Part shown: piece after piece, positions 8,270-18,636 of the stretch
Numbering within the stretch: the first letter of the stretch is position 1
Layout: every line of letters starts with the position of its first letter
NCBI GenBank assembly: GCA_018266455.1
Contig: JAFEAJ010000016.1
Span: 12,157-76,156, forward strand
Source of the DNA: Bacteroidota bacterium
GTDB lineage: Bacteria; Bacteroidota; Bacteroidia; Chitinophagales; Chitinophagaceae
Reading direction: 5' to 3'
Length of the DNA stretch: 64,000 nt
Made by a program: the position numbers and the translations under genes
Notes under the pieces: generated by a model
The model's database searches: none
Seen by the model: the letters and a program-made list of their open reading frames with translations, nothing else
Told to the model about the DNA's origin: nothing

Positions 8270-8995
8270 TTGAACATGGTTATAGATAGCGCTGCAATCA
8301 AAGACAGATTTTCACCTATTGATACCCGTTCGCTGGTGGATAAAGTGGAGGCTAACCTCGTTGGGCTTCTTCAGCAAAAAAAGTTGAAGATTGGGGATAG
8401 CATTCCCAAAGAGATTGAACTGGCGGAAAACCTTGGGGTAAGCCGTACCGTTGTCAGGGAAGCTTTGCTCAGGTTGCGAATGATGGGCCTCATTGAGTCA
8501 AAAAAGAAAAAAGGTGCAGTGCTGACAAGCCCCGACTTGTTTGGGATAATCAATAAAAGCATGAACCCCCATATCCTTGACCAGGATACTTTGAAAGAAA
8601 TGTTTGAGATCCGGCTGGTGCTTGAAATAGGAATGGCTGACCTGATTTTTAACCGCATCGTACCAAATGACATTGAAGAGCTTTACCGCATCGTAAGCGA
8701 TGAGCCCCCGGCTGCTCAATACCATTTGTTCAATATCGATCACGAAATCAGTTTCCATGGAAAATTATATGAGATCACTGGCAATGAAACCATGAAAAAA
8801 TTCCAGAAAATGCTGTTGCCGATATTTGATTATGTACATAACAGCGGCTTGCTGAAAAAACAACCGGCCCTGAAAACATTCGTTTCGCATAAAGAGCTCG
8901 TTGATATTCTTCAGCACGGCAATCCCGAAAAATTCAGGAACGGCATGCGCAGCCACCTGGAAAATCACTTTGCCAGGATATTTGACAGAGATTAG
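8270..8995 (+). CDS. FadR/GntR family transcriptional regulator, probable regulator of the sialic acid locus
   Basis: wHTH IPKEIELAENLGVSRTVVREAL plus FCD domain (EIRLVLE, FHGKLY); divergent from susC. Confidence 0.9.
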   Translation: MNMVIDSAAIKDRFSPIDTRSLVDKVEANLVGLLQQKKLKIGDSIPKEIELAENLGVSRTVVREALLRLRMMGLIESKKKKGAVLTSPDLFGIINKSMNPHILDQDTLKEMFEIRLVLEIGMADLIFNRIVPNDIEELYRIVSDEPPAAQYHLFNIDHEISFHGKLYEITGNETMKKFQKMLLPIFDYVHNSGLLKKQPALKTFVSHKELVDILQHGNPEKFRNGMRSHLENHFARIFDRD

Positions 8996-9057: not shown

Positions 9058-10362
9058 TCAACTGATATAAATTTCATTTTGGCGAGGCGGGCCATGTTTG
9101 ACCATTTGCCCTACATTTGCTACCAACATTCCTGAGAAAAGAACAATGGCAGCAAACAGCAACAGCACATTAATAAATGGCGCTTCAATATAAGCCATAT
9201 CGCATGCGCCTTGTATCATCAGCAGCAGTTCATTCAAAATAATTCCTGCCACAAAAATTTTAAACCCGTTAATTGATAGTTTGTTCACCCTGACCAGGTT
9301 TAATGTTTGCATATAGGTAATGATGAAGAGCGAGATAACGCCTAACAGAACAAGATGGAGATAACCGATAACAATTGGCCTGAAACCAAAGGCAAGCCTG
9401 CTTAAAGGAGGGATGACAGAAATTGCCTGAAGGACAAGTTTAACTGAAAGGGCAATAGCCACCAATGTAAATAAAACCTTTGAAAGCGGAGATAATGCTG
9501 CTTGTATCAGCTTGAGTTTTTTTCTGATCTGCAGCAACAACAGAAGCCAGCCTGCCAGTTGTAGCAAAGAGGCTACCACAACAAGAATATAAACCCACAA
9601 AGGAATATGCAGCCATAATACTGAAAGAAAATAAGCAGGGACGCATGCTGCCGCAAATAAATAATAGGCCTGCTGCATTGAACGGCCTGCGATGCCATAT
9701 TCTGTTAGCTGAAAAGAGAGTAACCCCATGCAGGCAAAGAAGAACCAACCGTCGTACTGGAAATGCAGAAAGAAATAAACTGATGCCAGGTAAACATCCT
9801 GGTGTATGTTTTTTGATGCCATCATGTAAGCCAGCGTGAATGGGCCAATCGAAGAGATCACATTGAAAAATAATGAAGCTTTGAACCAGGAATGACAGAG
9901 CCTATTTTGTTGTAGCCTGTTCAAATCTTTCCAGAAAAAAATAGCAAATAAGTAAGATACAAAAATAGAAAGGGTAGAAAACAAGATGGAAAGAAATGCG
10001 TACCCCATAAACGGAAAAGTAAACAACATTCCGTATGCAGATACGAGGTTTGCCAATAGTATCCAGCGGTAACGCTTGAATGCGTTTTCTTGCTGTTGCT
10101 TTACAAGATAGCCAACAAGCAGTGCCATCAGCGCTTGGGTTACCCATCCGGAAAATGCAAAATGAGAATGTGCGTGCAATAGGAACCGTTGGTTTACAAA
10201 AGGCAGGGAGAATGCGATCTTGTACCGCAATACAGTTCCCAAAAGCGCAATGACCAATAAGTTGAATAATGAAATCCGCAGCCACTTGCTTTGCATATTG
10301 TTCATTTCTTTTTGGGAGCAAAATAACAACCCGGTTATTTTTTGCATTATGATTTTTATCAT
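9058..10362 (-). CDS. Polytopic membrane protein with His-rich helices (NnrS-like or heme-copper oxidase-like; function uncertain)
   Basis: About 12 hydrophobic segments; motifs LHAHSHFAFSGW, FLHFQYDGW and YLHLVLLG; ORF overlaps the Crp/Fnr gene end by 4 nt. True start may be a downstream Met. Confidence 0.6.
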   Translation of the reverse strand: MIKIIMQKITGLLFCSQKEMNNMQSKWLRISLFNLLVIALLGTVLRYKIAFSLPFVNQRFLLHAHSHFAFSGWVTQALMALLVGYLVKQQQENAFKRYRWILLANLVSAYGMLFTFPFMGYAFLSILFSTLSIFVSYLFAIFFWKDLNRLQQNRLCHSWFKASLFFNVISSIGPFTLAYMMASKNIHQDVYLASVYFFLHFQYDGWFFFACMGLLSFQLTEYGIAGRSMQQAYYLFAAACVPAYFLSVLWLHIPLWVYILVVVASLLQLAGWLLLLLQIRKKLKLIQAALSPLSKVLFTLVAIALSVKLVLQAISVIPPLSRLAFGFRPIVIGYLHLVLLGVISLFIITYMQTLNLVRVNKLSINGFKIFVAGIILNELLLMIQGACDMAYIEAPFINVLLLFAAIVLFSGMLVANVGQMVKHGPPRQNEIYIS

Positions 10363-10961
10363 ATAGCCTTACAGTACACTTTGCCTTTTAAAATTTTTAT
10401 TTCCCCTTTTTCATGAAGGTGCCGCATGCTGCGGATAACAGTTTCCACGCGAAGCCCGGTCATATCTGCAATTTGCTGGCGGGTGAGTTTGATTTGATTG
10501 CATTTCGGGCAAATATTTTTTTTTGACTGCTTGAAATAATCAATCAAAATCGAAATGCGGTGTTCGGAATCGGCGCAGGCAAGTTCTTTCAATAACAAAA
10601 ATTTAAAGCGCAACCTTTGTGTGAGCATTTTATCGAATTCAAAATGTATCTCAGGCTCTTCTTTCAACAACTGAAGAAAGCTTGATTTGTGAAGGCGGAT
10701 CACCACTGAATTTTCGTTGGCTATTGCCGAAGAAGCATAGGGGGAATCGTCGAACAAAGGAAACTCCCCAAAGCATTCTCCGGGCTGAATAAAATCATGA
10801 ATAAATTCTTTCCCTTCATCATTGATGTCTACCCAACGTACCGAACCGCCAGCTAACTGATGATAGAAAATACATTGTTGCCTTTCACTGAAGATTGTTT
10901 CTCCAGCAGTTACTTTTTTGTAGGTAGCGCCCCATGCCAGAAGTGTATCGATGCCAATCAT
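10359..10961 (-). CDS. Crp/Fnr family transcriptional regulator
   Basis: cNMP-binding fold (GECFGEFPLF, YASSAIA) and HTH LTRQQIADMTGLRVETVIR; start taken at MIGIDTLL. Confidence 0.92.
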   Translation of the reverse strand: MIGIDTLLAWGATYKKVTAGETIFSERQQCIFYHQLAGGSVRWVDINDEGKEFIHDFIQPGECFGEFPLFDDSPYASSAIANENSVVIRLHKSSFLQLLKEEPEIHFEFDKMLTQRLRFKFLLLKELACADSEHRISILIDYFKQSKKNICPKCNQIKLTRQQIADMTGLRVETVIRSMRHLHEKGEIKILKGKVYCKAI

Positions 10962-11060
10962 CGTATTGTGTTTTGATAAATAGATAATTCGATAATATAT
11001 AAAAACGCGCAAACCTCCTTAATTCAGCAACAAAGGGTAATGAGATTAAATAGTACACCA

Positions 11061-11076
11061 TATGACAATAATCATA
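11061..11076. promoter_or_regulatory. Crp/Fnr-type palindrome TATGA-CAATAA-TCATA
   Basis: Perfect 5-6-5 inverted repeat on the regulator side of the divergent intergenic region. Confidence 0.65.
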
Positions 11077-11186
11077 GCGCAGGCATTGCTGAAATCGCCA
11101 AAACCAATAGAATGCAGCACAGGCAAGGGTCTTAAAGTTTTTGTGAAATTAATAAAAAAAACGATTCTGGTCAGTATGAGCCAGAA

Positions 11187-11202
11187 TATGACATAACTCA
11201 TA
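11187..11202. promoter_or_regulatory. Crp/Fnr-type palindrome TATGA-CATAAC-TCATA
   Basis: Second perfect copy, about 50 bp upstream of the cytochrome c start and 21 bp upstream of a -7-like box (TAATCTTG, 11224-11231). Confidence 0.65.
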
Positions 11203-11253
11203 AAATGACAGCAGGCGTACGCTTAATCTTGCATAAAATTTAAAGATTTCATT

Positions 11254-11733
11254 ATGAAAAAAATAATTGTAACCGGGCTAATGGCTGCGTTGGTTATTGC
11301 ATGCGGCAGTAACAATTCCGGGGAGAACCAAGCTCCTTCTTCTCCCGCTTCATCTGATCAAAGTTCTTCATCCGGCAACCCTTCTTACGATCCGAACCGG
11401 GGAGCGGGGAAATTTACAAAAGTAGAAATATCTGCTAGCCTGGATGCAGCCAAAGCAGAAGCCGGAAGCAAAGTGTACTCGGTTAAATGCAGCGCCTGTC
11501 ATAAGCTGACTGATGAAAAATTAGTTGGCCCTGGATGGAAAGGCGTTACCAGCAGGCACAGTGCTGAATGGATCATGAATTTTGCTACTAACACAGATGA
11601 AATGCTTACAAAGGACCCAAAAGCGCAAGCACAATTAGAAATTTGCCTGGTGCGAATGCCAAACCAAAATTTAACAGATGATGATGCAAGGAATGTATAT
11701 GAGTTTATGCGAAAAAATGATGGGATAAAATAG
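11254..11733 (+). CDS. Monoheme cytochrome c lipoprotein of the nos cluster
   Basis: Lipobox VIAC; CSACH heme motif; VGPGW; distal Met candidate in LVRMP. Confidence 0.9.
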   Translation: MKKIIVTGLMAALVIACGSNNSGENQAPSSPASSDQSSSSGNPSYDPNRGAGKFTKVEISASLDAAKAEAGSKVYSVKCSACHKLTDEKLVGPGWKGVTSRHSAEWIMNFATNTDEMLTKDPKAQAQLEICLVRMPNQNLTDDDARNVYEFMRKNDGIK

Positions 11734-11792
11734 TAAGAAATGTTTCAGTTAATCAGTAAATTATTTTTTGACCTTCAATAATGTATTTCAAT

Positions 11793-13784
11793 ATGAAAAA
11801 AAATCAAGTATTGCCATTATATGTTTTAGCAGCAGTTGTTCTGCTGGGAACATATTCTTGCAAACCAAGAAACGCAGGCAGCGCTGTTACTTCAGGAGCT
11901 GCTGAGAAAGCTTATGTAGCCCCGGGAAAATATGATGAGTTCTATAATTTTGTTTCTGGCGGTTTCAGCGGGCAAATGAGTGTTTATGGCATCCCCTCAG
12001 GGAGGTTGCTTCGCGTAATCCCGGTATTCTCTGTTGACCCGGAGAAAGGTTATGGCTATTCAGAAGAAACAAAACCTATGCTGAATACATCTCATGGCTT
12101 TGTTCCATGGGATGACCTTCACCATACTGAACTTTCACAAACAAATGGAGAAATTGACGGACGATGGGTTTTCGGCAACGCTAATAATACCCCTCGTGTT
12201 GCACGGCTCGATCTTACTACGTTTTCTACCGCTGAAATTATTGAGCTGCCTAATAGCGCAGGCAACCACTCTTCCCCTTTTATTACCGAAAACACAGAAT
12301 ATGTAGTAGCAGGAACAAGGTTCAGTGTCCCACCGGATAATGTGAACGGTGATGTTCCTATCAATACATACAAGAAAAATTTTAAAGGCTACCTCAGCTT
12401 TATCAGTATTGGCAAAGAAGGCCAGATGGATATTGCATTCCAGATCCAATGCCCTGGGGTGGACTTTGATTTAAGCCATGCAGGCAAAGCTAAATCGCAC
12501 GACTGGTTTTTCTTCACGTGCTATAACAGCGAACGGGCAAATACCTTGCTGGAAGTGAACGCCTCTCAAAAAGACAAAGATTTTATTCTTGCTTTGAACT
12601 GGAAAAAAGCGGAAGAGTATGTAAAAGCAGGCAAAGGAAAGAAAGTGGCAGTTAAATATGCCCACAACGTTTATAACGAAAAAACACACACTGCCACTTC
12701 TGAAATCAGGAATGAAGTAACTGTTCTGGATTCAAAAGATTTTTCTGATCTGTGCTATTTCATTCCCTGCCCCAAATCACCTCATGGTTGTGATGTTGAC
12801 CCGACAGGAGAATATATAGTAGGGAGCGGGAAACTGGCAGCGCTGATCCCTGTTTTCAGTTTTGATAAATTGCAAAAAGCAATTGCCAACAAAGAATTTG
12901 ATGGCAATTATGAGGGCATCCCTGTTGTGAAATACGAGTCAGCATTGTATGGAGAAGTGCAGAAACCTGGCCTTGGCCCCTTGCATACCGAGTTCGATGG
13001 GAAGGGCAACGCTATTACTTCCTTTTTCGTTTCTTCAGAGCTGGTGAAATGGAATATTAAAGATTTGAAAGTCCTTGACAGAGTGCCCACTTATTATTCT
13101 GTAGGCCACCTTTGCATACCAGGCGGCGATACCAGAAAGCCAAATGCAAAATATGTGATCGCTTATAACAAAATTACAAAAGACCGCTACTTGCCAACAG
13201 GGCCTGAACTGGCTCAAAGTGCGCAATTGTTTGATATCACCGGTGATAAAATGCAGTTGATCCTTGACTTCCCTACCATTGGAGAACCTCACTATGCACA
13301 GGCTGTATCTGCCGACCTGATAAAAAGCAAGTCAGTGAAATTTTTCAACATCAACGATAACGCCAATCCTTACGTGTCAAAAGGGGAGCCCGAAGCAAAA
13401 GTTGTTCGTGAAGGAAATAAAGTGCATGTGTACATAACATCTATCCGCTCGCACTTTAACCCTGATAATATAGAAGGCATTAAAATTGGCGATGAAGTGT
13501 ATTTCCACGTAACAAACCTTGAACAGGACTGGGACATACCTCACGGGTTTGCGGTTAAAGGAGCGCCAAACGGGGAGCTGCTGATTATGCCCGGCAGTAC
13601 CCAAACACTGAAATGGGTGCCCGACAGAGTGGGGATATTCCCCTTCTACTGTACTGATTTCTGCAGCGCTTTGCACCAGGAAATGCAAGGCTATGCAAGG
13701 GTTTCTCCGGCAGGCAGCACTGTGCCGCTAATGTTTAGTACCGGCAAAAACCTGCCCCCATCAGACTCAACTTCAGCAAAATGA
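11793..13784 (+). CDS. nosZ: Nitrous oxide reductase, clade II (Sec-dependent)
   Basis: CuZ His motifs DDLHH, GNHSS, SPHG, PLHT, EPHY; CuA motifs PHGF and YCTDFCSALHQEM; no twin-Arg; lipobox-like GTYSC. Start taken at MKKNQ. Confidence 0.97.
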   Translation: MKKNQVLPLYVLAAVVLLGTYSCKPRNAGSAVTSGAAEKAYVAPGKYDEFYNFVSGGFSGQMSVYGIPSGRLLRVIPVFSVDPEKGYGYSEETKPMLNTSHGFVPWDDLHHTELSQTNGEIDGRWVFGNANNTPRVARLDLTTFSTAEIIELPNSAGNHSSPFITENTEYVVAGTRFSVPPDNVNGDVPINTYKKNFKGYLSFISIGKEGQMDIAFQIQCPGVDFDLSHAGKAKSHDWFFFTCYNSERANTLLEVNASQKDKDFILALNWKKAEEYVKAGKGKKVAVKYAHNVYNEKTHTATSEIRNEVTVLDSKDFSDLCYFIPCPKSPHGCDVDPTGEYIVGSGKLAALIPVFSFDKLQKAIANKEFDGNYEGIPVVKYESALYGEVQKPGLGPLHTEFDGKGNAITSFFVSSELVKWNIKDLKVLDRVPTYYSVGHLCIPGGDTRKPNAKYVIAYNKITKDRYLPTGPELAQSAQLFDITGDKMQLILDFPTIGEPHYAQAVSADLIKSKSVKFFNINDNANPYVSKGEPEAKVVREGNKVHVYITSIRSHFNPDNIEGIKIGDEVYFHVTNLEQDWDIPHGFAVKGAPNGELLIMPGSTQTLKWVPDRVGIFPFYCTDFCSALHQEMQGYARVSPAGSTVPLMFSTGKNLPPSDSTSAK

Positions 13785-13857
13785 TTACCCTTGGCCAACT
13801 GCATGCAGTTACCGGTTTGCAGTTGGCTTTCATATTTTCTAACTCCTCAATATGATT

Positions 13858-14427
13858 TTTATGAAAAATATTTATCTGGTCTTGACATTGTTTGTGGCCT
13901 TCAATATTTTTTCGTGCAGTAATGAACCTGAAAAACAACCCGAACAGGCTACAAACACTCAGCCGCCTGCGAGCGGCGGGCAGGAAAATGTAAAAGATGA
14001 TGAGTCGCAAAAAGATGTTGTGAAAGCGGCCATGGGATCCAAAGACCATACCACTTTGGTTGCAGCAATCAAACAAGCCGATTTGGTTACCACGCTTTCA
14101 AATGCCGGGCCATTCACCGTTTTTGCGCCCACCAATGCCGCTTTTGATAAACTTCCGGCAGGCACTGTCGATGGCCTGATGAAACCTGAAAAAAAAGAGG
14201 CCCTGACGAATATCTTAGAATATCATGTAACCGTGGGAGTGCTGAAACCTGAAAGCTTTGCCGACGGCCAAAGCCTGGGAATGGTGAATGGTGATAATGT
14301 GAAGGTGACCATAAAAGACGGAAAGGTAATGCTGAACAATTCGGCAACTATAACAGCTTCTATACCGGTTTCAAACGGCATTATTCACGTTGTTGATGCC
14401 GTGCTATTGCCACCTGAAAAAAAATAA
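13858..14427 (+). CDS. Fasciclin (FAS1) domain lipoprotein
   Basis: FTVFAPTNAAF, ILEYHV and NGIIHVVDAVL FAS1 motifs; lipobox IFSC. Confidence 0.92.
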   Translation, partial: FMKNIYLVLTLFVAFNIFSCSNEPEKQPEQATNTQPPASGGQENVKDDESQKDVVKAAMGSKDHTTLVAAIKQADLVTTLSNAGPFTVFAPTNAAFDKLPAGTVDGLMKPEKKEALTNILEYHVTVGVLKPESFADGQSLGMVNGDNVKVTIKDGKVMLNNSATITASIPVSNGIIHVVDAVLLPPEKK

Positions 14428-14459
14428 ATTTTTAATTTGACGGACATAAAAAAGTTTTT

Positions 14460-15065
14460 ATGGAAAAAGGCAAGTTAAGCCCCATCGTTAGGATACTTCT
14501 GTTAGCCGGTGCAATAGCGCTAACAGTAAGCATTTTTGTCCCGATATGGCAAATTGATTTAGATGCTCCGCAATATCCAGAAGGGCTGACCCTGCTCATA
14601 TTCAGTAATAAATTAGGGGGCAATGTGGATATCGTGAACGGGCTTAACCATTATATCGGGATGAAGACCCTGCATGCTGAAGACTTTATTGAATTCACCG
14701 TACTCCCTTACCTGATTGGTTTTTTTGCATTTGCTTTTTTGCTCACATCACTTATTGCAAAAAAGAAACTGTTATATGTGTTACTGATTGTTTTCATCCT
14801 TTTTGGAATTGTGGCAATATTTGATTTCTGGAGATGGGAATATAATTACGGACATAACCTAAACCCGGAAGCGGCAATTATAGTGCCGGGCATGACCTAC
14901 CAGCCACCTTTAATAGGGTTTAAACAATTGCTTAATTTTGGTGCTTATTCCATTCCTGCGCTTGGGGGATGGTTGTTTATAAGCTCAGGAATATTGCTCG
15001 TGATCAGCGTTTTTCTTTCAACAAAAAAAAAAAGTTCAACCCGGCATTTGAAAAATCTTCAATAA
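14460..15065 (+). CDS. nosB: NosB-type membrane protein of clade II nos clusters (possibly the N-terminal half of a NosB-NosL fusion)
   Basis: WQIDLDAPQYPEGL, NGLNHYIGMK and YNYGHNLNP motifs; about 4 TM segments; sits between nosZ and nosL. Confidence 0.78.
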   Translation: MEKGKLSPIVRILLLAGAIALTVSIFVPIWQIDLDAPQYPEGLTLLIFSNKLGGNVDIVNGLNHYIGMKTLHAEDFIEFTVLPYLIGFFAFAFLLTSLIAKKKLLYVLLIVFILFGIVAIFDFWRWEYNYGHNLNPEAAIIVPGMTYQPPLIGFKQLLNFGAYSIPALGGWLFISSGILLVISVFLSTKKKSSTRHLKNLQ

Positions 15066-15481
15066 TAGTACCTGGCTTGCTGTTGATGATCAGCCTCAAC
15101 AGTTGCAACCCGGGACCGCAACCCATTGCGCCAGGAAAAGACAATTGCGCATTCTGCAAAATGATGGTTACTGATTTGCGCTATTGTTCAGAAATAGTAA
15201 CTAAAAAAGGAAAGACCTATAAGTTTGATGACCCGCATTGCCTGATGTCTTTCCTTCATGCGAGCGAAGTTAAACAAGGTGAAATCCGGGACATTTACTT
15301 TGCAGACTTTACCGATAACCGACATTTCATTAAGGCAGGCGAAGCCGTTTTTTTTCAAAGCGATTCGCTGGCAACCCCCATGAACGGCAATATTGCAGCT
15401 TTTACAAATACACAAACCCTTCAGCAGGCGATGAAAAACCATGACGGCAAAATTTTGCATTGGAACGACATCAATAAATGA
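14969..15481 (+). CDS. nosL: NosL copper chaperone; 5' end uncertain (see A11 finding)
   Basis: CAFCKMMV, KFDDPHCL and TPMNGNI motifs; lipobox-like LNSC. Confidence 0.85.
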   Translation: MVVYKLRNIARDQRFSFNKKKKFNPAFEKSSIIVPGLLLMISLNSCNPGPQPIAPGKDNCAFCKMMVTDLRYCSEIVTKKGKTYKFDDPHCLMSFLHASEVKQGEIRDIYFADFTDNRHFIKAGEAVFFQSDSLATPMNGNIAAFTNTQTLQQAMKNHDGKILHWNDINK

Positions 15482-16713
15482 AAAAAATATTATTATACGC
15501 ATTGCTTTTCTGCACCTGCTTTTCATTGTATGCAAATACGATAAAAGTAGGCCGGAACGAAAATATCTCAACTATCGCCAAAGGAATTGCGCTAGCCGCA
15601 AATGGAGATACTGTGCTGGTTGGCCCGGGGCTATATAAAGAGCATGGCCTCATAGTCAACAAATCAATTTTGCTGAAAGGGGCCAATAATCCGGTCATTG
15701 ATGGAGAAAACAAATTTGAAGTGGTCGCAATCACTGTCAGCAATGTTACTATAGAGGGGTTTACGGTTATCAATTCAGGTTCTTCTTCAGTAGAAGATTA
15801 TGCAGGGATCAAGATCATCAACAGTAAAAATGTCATCATCAGGAACAATATCCTTCAGAACAATTTTTTCGGAATTTATTCCCAACATGGCACCCATTGC
15901 AGGATTGAAAATAATCGCATCAGTTCAACTGCTGTGTCGGAGCAACTGAGTGGCAATGGCATTCATTGCTGGAAGAGCGATAGCATGTACATTATCGGGA
16001 ACAAAATGAATGGCAACAGGGACGGGATCTATTTTGAATTCGTTACCAATTCTGTCATCAGCAGAAACGAGTCTTTCAAAAATGTACGCTACGGACTGCA
16101 TTTTATGTTCTCCAACAACGATGCTTATATCAGCAACCTCTTTCACAACAATGGTTCCGGTGTAGCAGTAATGTATTCGCATGGGGTAAGCATGATCCGC
16201 AATTTCTTTTTTGAAAACTGGGGAGATGCAGCTTATGGGCTGCTGCTGAAAGAAATTGCTGACAGCTATATTGATAACAATTCATTTGAAAAAAATACCA
16301 GCGGGATTGTGATGGAAGGAGCAAGCCGCATCCAGGTGCAGCGTAATTCTTTCAATAGAAATGGCACAGCATTGCGCATACAAGCCAGTTGCATGGACAT
16401 CGATATCAAAAAAAACAATTTTATCGGCAACACTTTCGACGTGTCTACCAACGGGTCGCTGGTGCTGAATTCCTTTAAAGGAAATTTTTGGGACAAATAT
16501 GAAGGCTATGATTTGAACAGAGATGGCATCGGCGATGTGCCATACCGGCCGGTAAGCTTATATTCTATGATCATTGAGAAAAATCCGCCTGCCATGATTT
16601 TATTCAGGAGCTTTATGTCGTCATTGCTGGATAAAACCGAAAGGGTACTGCCCGGTCTGACACCCGAAGCGCTAAAGGACGATAACCCATTAATGAAACC
16701 ATTAAAGTTATGA
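15478..16713 (+). CDS. nosD: NosD periplasmic CuZ maturation protein (parallel beta-helix)
   Basis: GIHCWKS, RDGIYFEF, RYGLHFMFS, GNFWDKYEGYDLNRDGIGDVPY. Confidence 0.93.
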   Translation: MKKILLYALLFCTCFSLYANTIKVGRNENISTIAKGIALAANGDTVLVGPGLYKEHGLIVNKSILLKGANNPVIDGENKFEVVAITVSNVTIEGFTVINSGSSSVEDYAGIKIINSKNVIIRNNILQNNFFGIYSQHGTHCRIENNRISSTAVSEQLSGNGIHCWKSDSMYIIGNKMNGNRDGIYFEFVTNSVISRNESFKNVRYGLHFMFSNNDAYISNLFHNNGSGVAVMYSHGVSMIRNFFFENWGDAAYGLLLKEIADSYIDNNSFEKNTSGIVMEGASRIQVQRNSFNRNGTALRIQASCMDIDIKKNNFIGNTFDVSTNGSLVLNSFKGNFWDKYEGYDLNRDGIGDVPYRPVSLYSMIIEKNPPAMILFRSFMSSLLDKTERVLPGLTPEALKDDNPLMKPLKL

Positions 16714-17417
16714 TCATTGCCAGTAATGTGTCGAAAAAATTTAAGAAGCTGACCGTTTTGGAAAACGTGTCGTTGAACTGTATAAAGGGAGAGTGCATCG
16801 CATTGATTGGCCCGAACGGCAGCGGCAAAACAACACTTATCAAAACGATCCTGGGCATGGTAGTGCCAGACAGTGGGTTTATAACCTTCAATGGCAGGAA
16901 TATTTTGCACGACTGGAAATACCGTTCACACATCGGCTATATGCCCCAAATAGGCCGTTATCCTGATAACATGACAATAGGCCAGGTGCTGAGTATGATG
17001 AAAGACATTAGGGCACACAAAGAAAAAACCTTTGATGAAGAACTGATCTATGCATTCGGATTAAACATATTGCTAAATAAACGGATGCGCACATTATCAG
17101 GTGGGACGAGGCAAAAGGTGAGCGCTTGCCTTGCCTTCCTGTTCGATCCGGAAGTGCTCATACTGGATGAGCCGACTGCAGGGCTGGACCCGCTCTCTTC
17201 TGAACTTTTAAAAGACAAGATCAGGAAAGAAAAACAAAAGGGCAAGCTTATTATGATCACTTCGCATATCCTTAGTGAACTGGACGACCTTATCACACAG
17301 GTAATTTATATGCAGGAGGGGAAATTGGTATTTCACAAAAATATTGATGACCTGCGTAAGGAAACAGGAGAACAGAAACTGTCAAAAGCCATTGCATCCG
17401 TTATGATAAAAAAATAA
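16710..17417 (+). CDS. nosF: NosF ABC ATPase
   Basis: Walker A GPNGSGKT, signature LSGG, Walker B ILDEP; overlaps the nosD stop. Confidence 0.9.
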   Translation: MIIASNVSKKFKKLTVLENVSLNCIKGECIALIGPNGSGKTTLIKTILGMVVPDSGFITFNGRNILHDWKYRSHIGYMPQIGRYPDNMTIGQVLSMMKDIRAHKEKTFDEELIYAFGLNILLNKRMRTLSGGTRQKVSACLAFLFDPEVLILDEPTAGLDPLSSELLKDKIRKEKQKGKLIMITSHILSELDDLITQVIYMQEGKLVFHKNIDDLRKETGEQKLSKAIASVMIKK

Positions 17418-17421
17418 ATGC

Positions 17422-18189
17422 ATGATAAAAATTGTTAAATATGTTATTGTGGATATCCTGCGAAATAAAATCGTAATCGCTTACACAGCCTTCCTGCTTG
17501 CGATTTCTCTGAGTATTTTTAACCTGGAAGACAATACTTCAAAAGGCTTGCTAAGCCTGCTGAATATCATATTGATCATCATCCCGCTGGTATCCATTAT
17601 TTTTTCTACCATTTATGTCTACAATAGCTCTGAGTTCCTAGAACTGCTGGTGAGCCAGCCATTGAAGAGAAAGAATATATGGATGAGCCTTTTTGCAGGC
17701 CTTGCTATTTCTCTTTCGTTTGCATTTTGTATAGGAGCTGGGATACCAATTATTTTATATGCAGCATCTTCCACAGGGTTCGTGATGCTTGGAATGGGCC
17801 TCATCTTATCCATCGTGTTCGCTTCGGTAGCCATGTTAAGCGCAGTAATGATCCGCGATAAAGCCAAGGGGATCGGCATTTCCATTTTACTGTGGCTGTA
17901 TTTTTCATTGCTGTTCGATGGGATGGTTTTGTTCATATTGTTCCAGTTTGAAGATTATCCGCTGGAAAAAATAATGGTTGCAATTACTGCATTTAACCCA
18001 ATAGATCTTGGGCGGATCCTGATTTTGCTAAAAATGGATATTTCAGCGATGATGGGCTATACGGGAGCAATATTCAGGGATTTTTTTGGCACCGGAACCG
18101 GGTTTTTTATCGCATTGCTTGTGATGCTGCTTTGGGTTGCAGTACCTGCCTGGCTATCTGTCAGGACCTTTAACAGGAAAGACCTGTAA
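17422..18189 (+). CDS. nosY: NosY ABC permease
   Basis: 6-7 TM segments; ELLVSQPLKR and FNPIDLGRI; follows nosF. Confidence 0.87.
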   Translation: MIKIVKYVIVDILRNKIVIAYTAFLLAISLSIFNLEDNTSKGLLSLLNIILIIIPLVSIIFSTIYVYNSSEFLELLVSQPLKRKNIWMSLFAGLAISLSFAFCIGAGIPIILYAASSTGFVMLGMGLILSIVFASVAMLSAVMIRDKAKGIGISILLWLYFSLLFDGMVLFILFQFEDYPLEKIMVAITAFNPIDLGRILILLKMDISAMMGYTGAIFRDFFGTGTGFFIALLVMLLWVAVPAWLSVRTFNRKDL

Positions 18190-18204
18190 CATATTGTTCT
18201 GACC

Positions 18205-18636
18205 ATGCTATTACAACTGGCAAAAATGAAAAAAGACATTGAAACAAGAAAAGATATCGAGCTGCTCGTAAATGAATTTTATGAGCGGGTTAAAAATGAC
18301 GACCTGATTGCATTCATTTTTACAGCAGTAAGAAAAGTGGATTGGAATAAGCATTTGCCTGTTATGTACGATTTCTGGGAAAATATTTTATTTCAATCCG
18401 GGACATATTATGGCAACCCAATGGCATTGCACAAACAATTGCACCAGCAGGTGCCCTTGAAGCAGGAATATTTTCAGCGATGGGTTTATCTTTTCGATCA
18501 AACTGTTGATGATTTATTTTATGGAGAGAACGCATCCCTGGTCAAAAAAAGGGCATCAAGCATTGCTGAAGTGATGCAAATGAAAATCCTACATAAAAAT
18601 GATTTTTTATCTGGGAAACCTGGCTTAACCAACTGA
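18205..18636 (+). CDS. Group III truncated haemoglobin (trHbP)
   Basis: LVNEFYERV, HLPVMYDFW, YYGNPMALH, FQRWVYLF and A..IA pattern. Confidence 0.9.
   Translation: MLLQLAKMKKDIETRKDIELLVNEFYERVKNDDLIAFIFTAVRKVDWNKHLPVMYDFWENILFQSGTYYGNPMALHKQLHQQVPLKQEYFQRWVYLFDQTVDDLFYGENASLVKKRASSIAEVMQMKILHKNDFLSGKPGLTN

Follow-up and report, generated by a model that had tools for sequence, protein, structure and literature searches.

Predicted Crp/Fnr-type operators at three promoters of a clade II nos locus in a member of the Chitinophagaceae

Introduction

In Escherichia coli, FNR recognizes the box TTGAT-N4-ATCAA, which is centred at -41.5 in class II FNR-dependent promoters, and a centre near -41.5 is the class II position of Crp/Fnr activators. 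The Fnr protein of Bacillus subtilis carries its Fe-S cluster on three C-terminal cysteines plus an Asp residue. The N2O reductase NosZ is a copper enzyme, and the -7 promoter element of Bacteroidota has the consensus TAnnTTTG. Crp/Fnr-type regulators of denitrification genes have been described by Rodionov et al. (2005; PMC1274295), and FixK2, a regulator of this type, acts at nosRZDYFLX of Bradyrhizobium diazoefficiens (PMC5582078). Crp/Fnr proteins have also been implicated in the expression of clade II nosZ, namely NssA, NssB and NssC of Wolinella succinogenes and those of Nitrosophilus labii (PMC11539149). The nearest published Bacteroidota motif is the one predicted for the Bacteroides Crp (BT4338), wwwTATGTTnTAnAACATAwww, with the site TATGTTnTAnAACATA (PMC3878776). 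The literature searched contained neither a described nos regulator for Bacteroidota nor the motif TATGA-N6-TCATA.

In soil, sediment and wastewater, Bacteroidota with clade II nosZ count among the major N2O sinks, and no paper on their control of nosZ was found. Here, we analyzed a stretch of 64,000 nucleotides from a bacterium of the family Chitinophagaceae (the window) for which a first-pass annotation had described two TATGA-N6-TCATA boxes as a Crp/Fnr-type operator for nos and for the gene of an adjacent regulator. We propose, with a probability of about 0.7, that these boxes are operators of the adjacent 200-aa Crp/Fnr regulator, which would act as a local activator of a module of three promoters.

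In its predicted features the locus matches a familiar kind of switch, the class II design of FNR, DNR and FixK at denitrification genes. Like FNR at class II promoters of E. coli, it would combine a TGA-N6-TCA inverted repeat, an E..R recognition helix with Val, and a site at about -41 that replaces the upstream promoter element. Unlike in the FNR system, the nos box has the flank A-TGA (TATGA) instead of T-TGA, the promoter is of the Bacteroidota -7/-33 type, the small regulator is devoid of both the N-terminal Cys cluster and Cys122, and its regulon appears to be local (three promoters) rather than global. As in the ANR-DNR system of Pseudomonas and in the NNR/NnrR and FixK2 systems, a dedicated Crp/Fnr regulator of denitrification or N2O-reductase genes would act through an FNR-like box, and it may likewise sit below a second, oxygen-responsive regulator. 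However, ANR-DNR, NNR/NnrR and FixK2 control clade I nosZ in Proteobacteria via TTGAT-type boxes, the targets of ANR-DNR and NNR/NnrR also including nir and nor, while the present locus carries clade II nosZ, belongs to the Chitinophagaceae and has a different half-site. By description, it resembles the Nss-type regulators of Campylobacterota in that clade II nosZ would be controlled by the Crp/Fnr superfamily, but the consensus assumed for the latter is TTGA-N6-TCAA, and that study does not mention a module of three promoters that includes a gene for a membrane protein (PMC11539149). With the BT4338 motif the boxes share the outer TATG...CATA arms, the 16-bp span and a predicted autoregulation; in this comparison of motifs, they differ in the fifth base (A in TATGA, T in TATGT) and in that the Bacteroides regulon is global and sugar-catabolic.

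Results

Both boxes were found in the window exactly as the first-pass annotation had given them, TATGACAATAATCATA at positions 11061-11076 and TATGACATAACTCATA at positions 11187-11202, and they contain the TGA-N6-TCA inverted-repeat core that is found in operators of the Crp/Fnr family. A pattern search of the window returned a third perfect copy, TATGATTTTTATCATA at 10348-10363, which had been missed, bringing the predicted operators to three instead of two. The expected number of TATGA-N6-TCATA matches per shuffled window was 0.06, and none of 100 shuffles gave three. A genome-wide scan for the same pattern, as proposed in the first-pass annotation, yielded six matches in 3.88 Mb, half of which lie within 855 bp at the nos locus. 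Since the remaining three perfect boxes (C42:43870, C51:43363 and C64:184836) have unrelated neighbour genes and show no -7 geometry, they were treated as chance matches.

The three local sites are assigned to the promoters of the nos operon (P_nos), of the regulator gene (P_reg) and of a membrane-protein gene (P_memb). When the genome was ranked with a position weight matrix (PWM) built from the sites of relatives, P_memb came first (19.7 bits), P_nos fourth and P_reg eighth. No other site had both a high score and a -7 element correctly placed at +21, which makes the regulon of the small regulator in its own genome look local and confined to three promoters. No nir or nor promoter with a box was found in the scans of this genome.

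The predicted operator of P_nos (TATGACATAACTCATA, plus strand, 11187-11202) precedes an operon at 11254-18636 on the same strand, which comprises genes for a cytochrome c, clade II (Sec-type) nosZ, fasciclin, nosB-like, nosL, nosD, nosF, nosY and a truncated globin. The cytochrome c gene, starting with the ATG at 11254, is the first gene of the operon, and the NosZ protein matches TIGR04246 with 920 bits. Exactly 21 nt after the box follows the -7 element TAATCTTG (plus strand, 11224-11231), which is nearly invariant in orthologues and is of the TAnnTTTG type, the consensus used in PMC9723704 and PMC7366714. Of 30 loci drawn from different genera of the family, 28 had this layout of box, 21 nt and -7 element at P_nos, and so did 71 of another 75. 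Because the box ends 21 nt before the -7 element, its centre would fall at about -40.5 to -42.5, or near -41.5 with the -7 element placed at roughly -12 to -5; we infer a centre at about -41 relative to the transcription start.

The family consensus of P_nos reads tTATGAyTnaACGCATAAA-N-gTAATCTTG. Most relatives carry GCATA instead of TCATA as the promoter-proximal arm, and the perfect palindrome of the genome studied here is therefore a minority form. The perfect palindrome claimed in the first-pass annotation thus holds for this genome, while the nos site of the family has the consensus TATGAyNNNACGCATAA. At P_nos, pairwise identity reached 0.87 for the box and 0.96 for the -7 element, against 0.28 for the spacer and upstream flank, which is a clean phylogenetic footprint. 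No conserved TTTG -33 element was found at these promoters in the aligned orthologous loci, where the information content is near zero outside the box. The distance between the boxes of the divergent promoters P_nos and P_reg is 126 bp in the window and ranges from 31 to 158 bp in orthologues. This range rules out a fixed phasing of the two boxes (126 bp, about 12 turns), and the spacing is therefore without special meaning. A palindrome, AAAAGAyA-N5-TGTCTTTT, is conserved shortly after the -7 element TACTTTTG at the nos promoters of a set of Chitinophagaceae that have no small regulator (L036, L162 and L166-L180). The window does not contain this palindrome, which may serve as a second operator or form a 5' hairpin.

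P_reg lies on the minus strand upstream of the regulator ATG at 10961. Its distal predicted operator (TATGATTATTGTCATA, 11061-11076), which is conserved as yATGA-N6-TCATr, would be centred at about -63.5. It is followed by a weak proximal site (ACTATTTAATCTCATT, 11039-11054) with a conserved TCAT half at 11040-11043 and by the -7 element GAGGTTTG (11010-11017), for which orthologues have TAGyTTTG at the same distance. The complete layout, i.e. palindrome, 17 nt, TCAT, 22 nt and TAnnTTTG, is kept in 64 of 75 loci. Within the proximal site the TCAT is near-invariant (about 1.8-2 bits per position), and the distal half appears only as a weak "cTG". The 22 nt between TCAT and the -7 element equal the distance of the promoter-proximal arm of the nos box, which points to a weak site at about -41.5 and places the strong palindrome, 22 bp upstream of it, at about -63.5. 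At three loci, the palindrome itself occupies the -41.5 position. The autoregulatory site claimed in the first-pass annotation is thereby retained as a predicted operator, to which the overlooked conserved half-site has to be added. An earlier candidate for the -7 element of P_reg, TACCCTTT directly after the box, was dropped, as orthologues conserve GAGGTTTG, 22 nt further on. Conservation in orthologous promoters had been named at the outset as a point on which the operator reading could fail; both originally reported boxes stand at fixed distances from their -7 elements in more than 100 orthologous loci, which represent many genera of the family.

The third predicted operator, P_memb (TATGATAAAAATCATA, minus strand, 10348-10363), overlaps the stop codon TGA of the regulator gene (10359-10361). 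On this strand it is followed by 21 nt, the -7 element TTATTTTG (10319-10326), 13 nt and an ATG at 10305. The corresponding pattern, T[A/G]TGATTnnAATCATA with 21 nt and TTAyTTTG, is located directly after the regulator stop codon in 58 related loci. On the strength of this conservation we assign to the membrane-protein gene (minus strand, 9058-10305) its own predicted box-dependent promoter and a start at 10305; the open reading frame beginning at 10362 is 19 codons too long. The resulting length of 415 aa agrees with that of the homologues (401-426 aa). The protein is polytopic and has more than 5,200 homologues, every one of them annotated as "hypothetical"; the family is uncharacterized, and a search for Pfam domains gave no match. 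Among the best 80 related loci, which come from Ferruginibacter, Sediminibacterium, Hydrotalea, Puia, Flavipsychrobacter and other Chitinophagaceae, the gene is syntenic in almost all, the gaps being mainly truncated contigs. Through its predicted promoter, the membrane-protein gene would be co-regulated with nos.

The regulator (200 aa, minus strand, 10359-10961) consists of the Pfam domains cNMP_binding and HTH_Crp_2. Its AlphaFold2 model has a pLDDT of 90, and the top Foldseek matches are structures of cAMP-bound E. coli CRP with a TM score of about 0.8. The recognition-helix residues VETVIR named in the first-pass annotation are indeed present, as part of R171-V-E-T-V-I-R177, which aligns with R-E-M-V-G-R of Vfr, the Glu and the Arg being kept. 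We take Glu173 and Arg177 to correspond to E181 and R185 of CRP and to E209 and R213 of FNR. The position of CRP R180 is occupied by Val, and FNR likewise carries Val (V208) there. Among the four Crp-like open reading frames of the genome, the RVETVIR helix occurs in the small regulator only.

In the alignment with Vfr, the Arg that contacts the cAMP phosphate (Arg82 of CRP) is replaced by Ser, and orthologues have Ser or Thr at this position. The protein scores 78 bits against the NCBIfam CRP model, for which the cut-off is 266. The Arg82 replacement, the sub-threshold NCBIfam score and the box, which is TATGA and not TGTGA, rule out CRP proper, i.e. a cAMP receptor. An FNR-type N-terminal Cys-x2-Cys-x5-Cys motif is absent, the protein starting with MIGIDTLLAWG and no N-terminal extension, and Cys30 and Cys63 are only partly conserved (29 and 46 of 63 orthologues, respectively). 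The missing cluster, together with A rather than T before TGA in nearly all sites, rules out FNR proper, the oxygen sensor. Judged from the sequence, the signal of the regulator is not cAMP and is not read by an FNR-type N-terminal Fe-S cluster. DNR (3dkw) gave only a weak sequence match (E = 4e-6).

Three other cysteines are highly conserved among 63 close orthologues: Cys151 in 62, Cys154 in 61 and Cys197 in 58. Cys151-x2-Cys154 forms a CxxC motif in the hairpin before the helix-turn-helix, and Cys197 is the C-terminal residue, with 51 of the 63 proteins ending exactly there (...GKVYC). The activating region 1 loop of CRP comprises residues 156-164, and Cys151 and Cys154 would fall about where this loop lies. 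As in B. subtilis Fnr, the conserved cysteines are located toward the C-terminal end and not at the N-terminus, but their arrangement differs, two lying before the helix-turn-helix and the third being the terminal residue. DNR and NnrR sense NO through a haem in their N-terminal domain, in contrast to the DNA-binding domain in which the conserved cysteines are found here. A more distant subgroup of 45-49% identity has kept helix and boxes without these cysteines. Cys151-x2-Cys154 and Cys197 are the best candidate for a sensing site. Only tentatively, we suggest that this three-cysteine site in the DNA-binding, polymerase-contacting domain, and not the N-terminal part, senses the signal, with an Fe-S cluster, Cu(I) or a redox disulfide as the conceivable ligand. 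If true, the site and the co-regulated membrane protein would represent a new sensing design in the Crp/Fnr family, and three-cysteine sensing would set the timing of N2O consumption by the Chitinophagaceae that are abundant in soil and wastewater.

In a sample of 150 genera of the family, nosZ was present in 78 genomes and a close orthologue of the regulator in 38. All 38 regulator-positive genomes carry nosZ, and none of the 72 nosZ-negative genomes carries the regulator; since the genomes are related and not independent, we report this linkage as a count rather than as a test. Searching 151 family genomes for a strict composite pattern (TATGA-N6-KCATA, 21 nt, TWnnYTTG) gave 87 matches, compared with 6 for the reversed control. 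By hand assignment from coordinates, 50 of the 87 matches belong to the nos/regulator module, 4 lie at 5-10 kb in the same cluster and 2 are beside paralogous regulators with the same helix. Cross-tabulation, also by hand, placed a strict match at the module in 32 of the 38 regulator-positive genomes versus 4 of the 40 nosZ-positive genomes without a close orthologue. The position of the boxes, the linkage to nosZ and the local PWM geometry give comparative support to the earlier claim that nos and the regulator gene itself are served by a Crp/Fnr-type operator.

Individual genomes depart from this picture in different ways. Two have a box without an adjacent regulator, the orthologue being located elsewhere in the nos cluster (G044, G060). 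Another has the box but carries, in place of an orthologue, just a homologue of 35% identity whose helix is likewise GLRVETVIR (G017), and a fourth has neither box nor orthologue and only a 25%-identical paralogue (G035). Paralogous RVETVIR regulators elsewhere also adjoin a box (G044:C7, G029 and G045). Among Bacteroidota Crp/Fnr proteins of 35-42% identity the GLRVETVIR helix is common, and several of these proteins have a TATGA-N6-TCATA box upstream with nosZ not nearby. Overall, the nos regulatory module was found in at least 587 genome loci.

Strict boxes with the -7 geometry were also seen at L230 (G044), L236 (G119), L231 (G053), L232 (G051), L241 (G096) and L244 (G045). The genes behind this set of boxes encode stand-alone fasciclin proteins, a cbb3-type oxidase subunit I, a nirK-like multicopper protein, FeoA and a cupin, and the cupin gene adjoins a 40%-identical paralogous regulator. 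The only other sampled genome of the genus from which the window comes is 100% complete (G057), and neither nosZ nor the regulator was seen in it. Members of the genus therefore differ in whether they have the nos module.

Discussion

In the mechanism we propose, a dimer of the small regulator would read TATGAyT-N2-ArTCATA via the recognition helix RVETVIR. P_nos and P_memb would each have one site, centred some 41 bp ahead of the start and covering the place of a -33 element, and RNA polymerase would for this reason need the activator, as in a class II mechanism. At P_reg, positive autoregulation would result from the strong palindrome at about -63.5 together with the weak site at about -41.5, which are separated by 22 bp. 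That the regulator binds the boxes, that it activates rather than represses and where transcription starts are what we infer from the arrangement and conservation of the sites. The module would constitute a concrete circuit of one regulator, three predicted operators with defined bases and a co-regulated membrane protein of an uncharacterized family. The identity of the signal, be it oxygen, NO, N2O or copper, would help to predict and engineer N2O consumption, and the operator consensus allows regulon scans in any metagenome-assembled genome.

Other readings of the boxes differ in who reads them and to what effect. There is a negligible probability that the palindromes are due to chance or bind some unrelated factor, for instance the GntR/FCD regulator encoded nearby (8270-8995): chance is contradicted by the shuffles, the genome-wide counts and the conservation across genera, and the GntR gene, which has gene proximity in its favour, is missing from all 80 syntenic loci and was rejected as the cognate factor because it is not syntenic. 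Repression, with the regulator blocking the -33 region until a signal releases RNA polymerase, would equally suit the overlap of the box with the -33 position, but we consider it improbable. The lack of a conserved TTTG -33 element at these promoters is typical of activator-dependent promoters, and the constant 21-nt helical register in more than 100 loci corresponds to a requirement of class II activation and goes beyond what repression needs. Moreover, Crp/Fnr regulators of nos in other phyla, such as FixK2, are activators.

A less remote, though still unlikely, reading assigns the boxes, or at a minimum the tandem pair at P_reg, to a REC-Crp hybrid, i.e. a two-component receiver fused to a Crp/Fnr module with the helix T-E-S-L-I-R. 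It would act either alone or atop a cascade in which REC-Crp switches on the gene of the small regulator and the latter in turn activates nos, an arrangement resembling ANR-DNR or FixLJ-FixK. Two REC-Crp proteins are encoded in the genome itself (C14, C44), the TESLIR helix of REC-Crp paralogues shares the E, I and R positions with the small regulator, and the layout of a box, 22 bp and a half-site recurs elsewhere in this genome at hsp20, thioredoxin (by a REC-Crp gene) and usp promoters. Three genomes (G012, G139 and G148) have ATGA-N6-TCAT boxes at the nos and membrane-gene promoters and no orthologue of the small regulator; in G148, a 352-aa receiver-Crp hybrid with the helix TTESLIR is encoded beside the membrane gene. 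Where nosZ-positive genomes lack the small regulator, a REC-Crp gene often stands 2-4 kb from nosZ, and in most of these genomes a TGA-N6-TCA box with less constant flanks precedes the -7 element by 21 nt. The flanks speak for the small regulator, however: promoters of the REC-Crp type have A, C or T before TGA, while ATGA...TCAT hardly varies among the three local sites and their orthologues. In addition, nosZ and the strict box co-occur with the small regulator and not with REC-Crp, and P_nos and P_memb are single sites. A strict covariation of RVETVIR with ATGA and of TESLIR with [G/T]TGA holds only partly, as it is broken by G148, G012 and G139. Strict boxes were further found upstream of ccoN and of a nirK-like gene in genomes without the small regulator. 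Because boxes are kept without the regulator and REC-Crp proteins share its helix residues, the assignment of the adjacent regulator as their reader, made in the first-pass annotation and favoured by the co-occurrence, is not exclusive.

Besides the nos locus, the genome contains a box upstream of a gene pair for a PAS histidine kinase and a REC-Crp protein (TTATGATTCAAATCATTT at C44:36469, 18.1 bits), where the -7 element is poor. Two TGA-N6-TCA-type sites 22 bp apart and 21 nt from a -7 element were observed at C33:77546, C44:33574, C62:3435 and C62:13023. These tandem-site promoters precede genes for Hsp20, thioredoxin (next to a REC-Crp gene), a PNPOx-like protein and a universal stress protein, and they may form a separate REC-Crp regulon.
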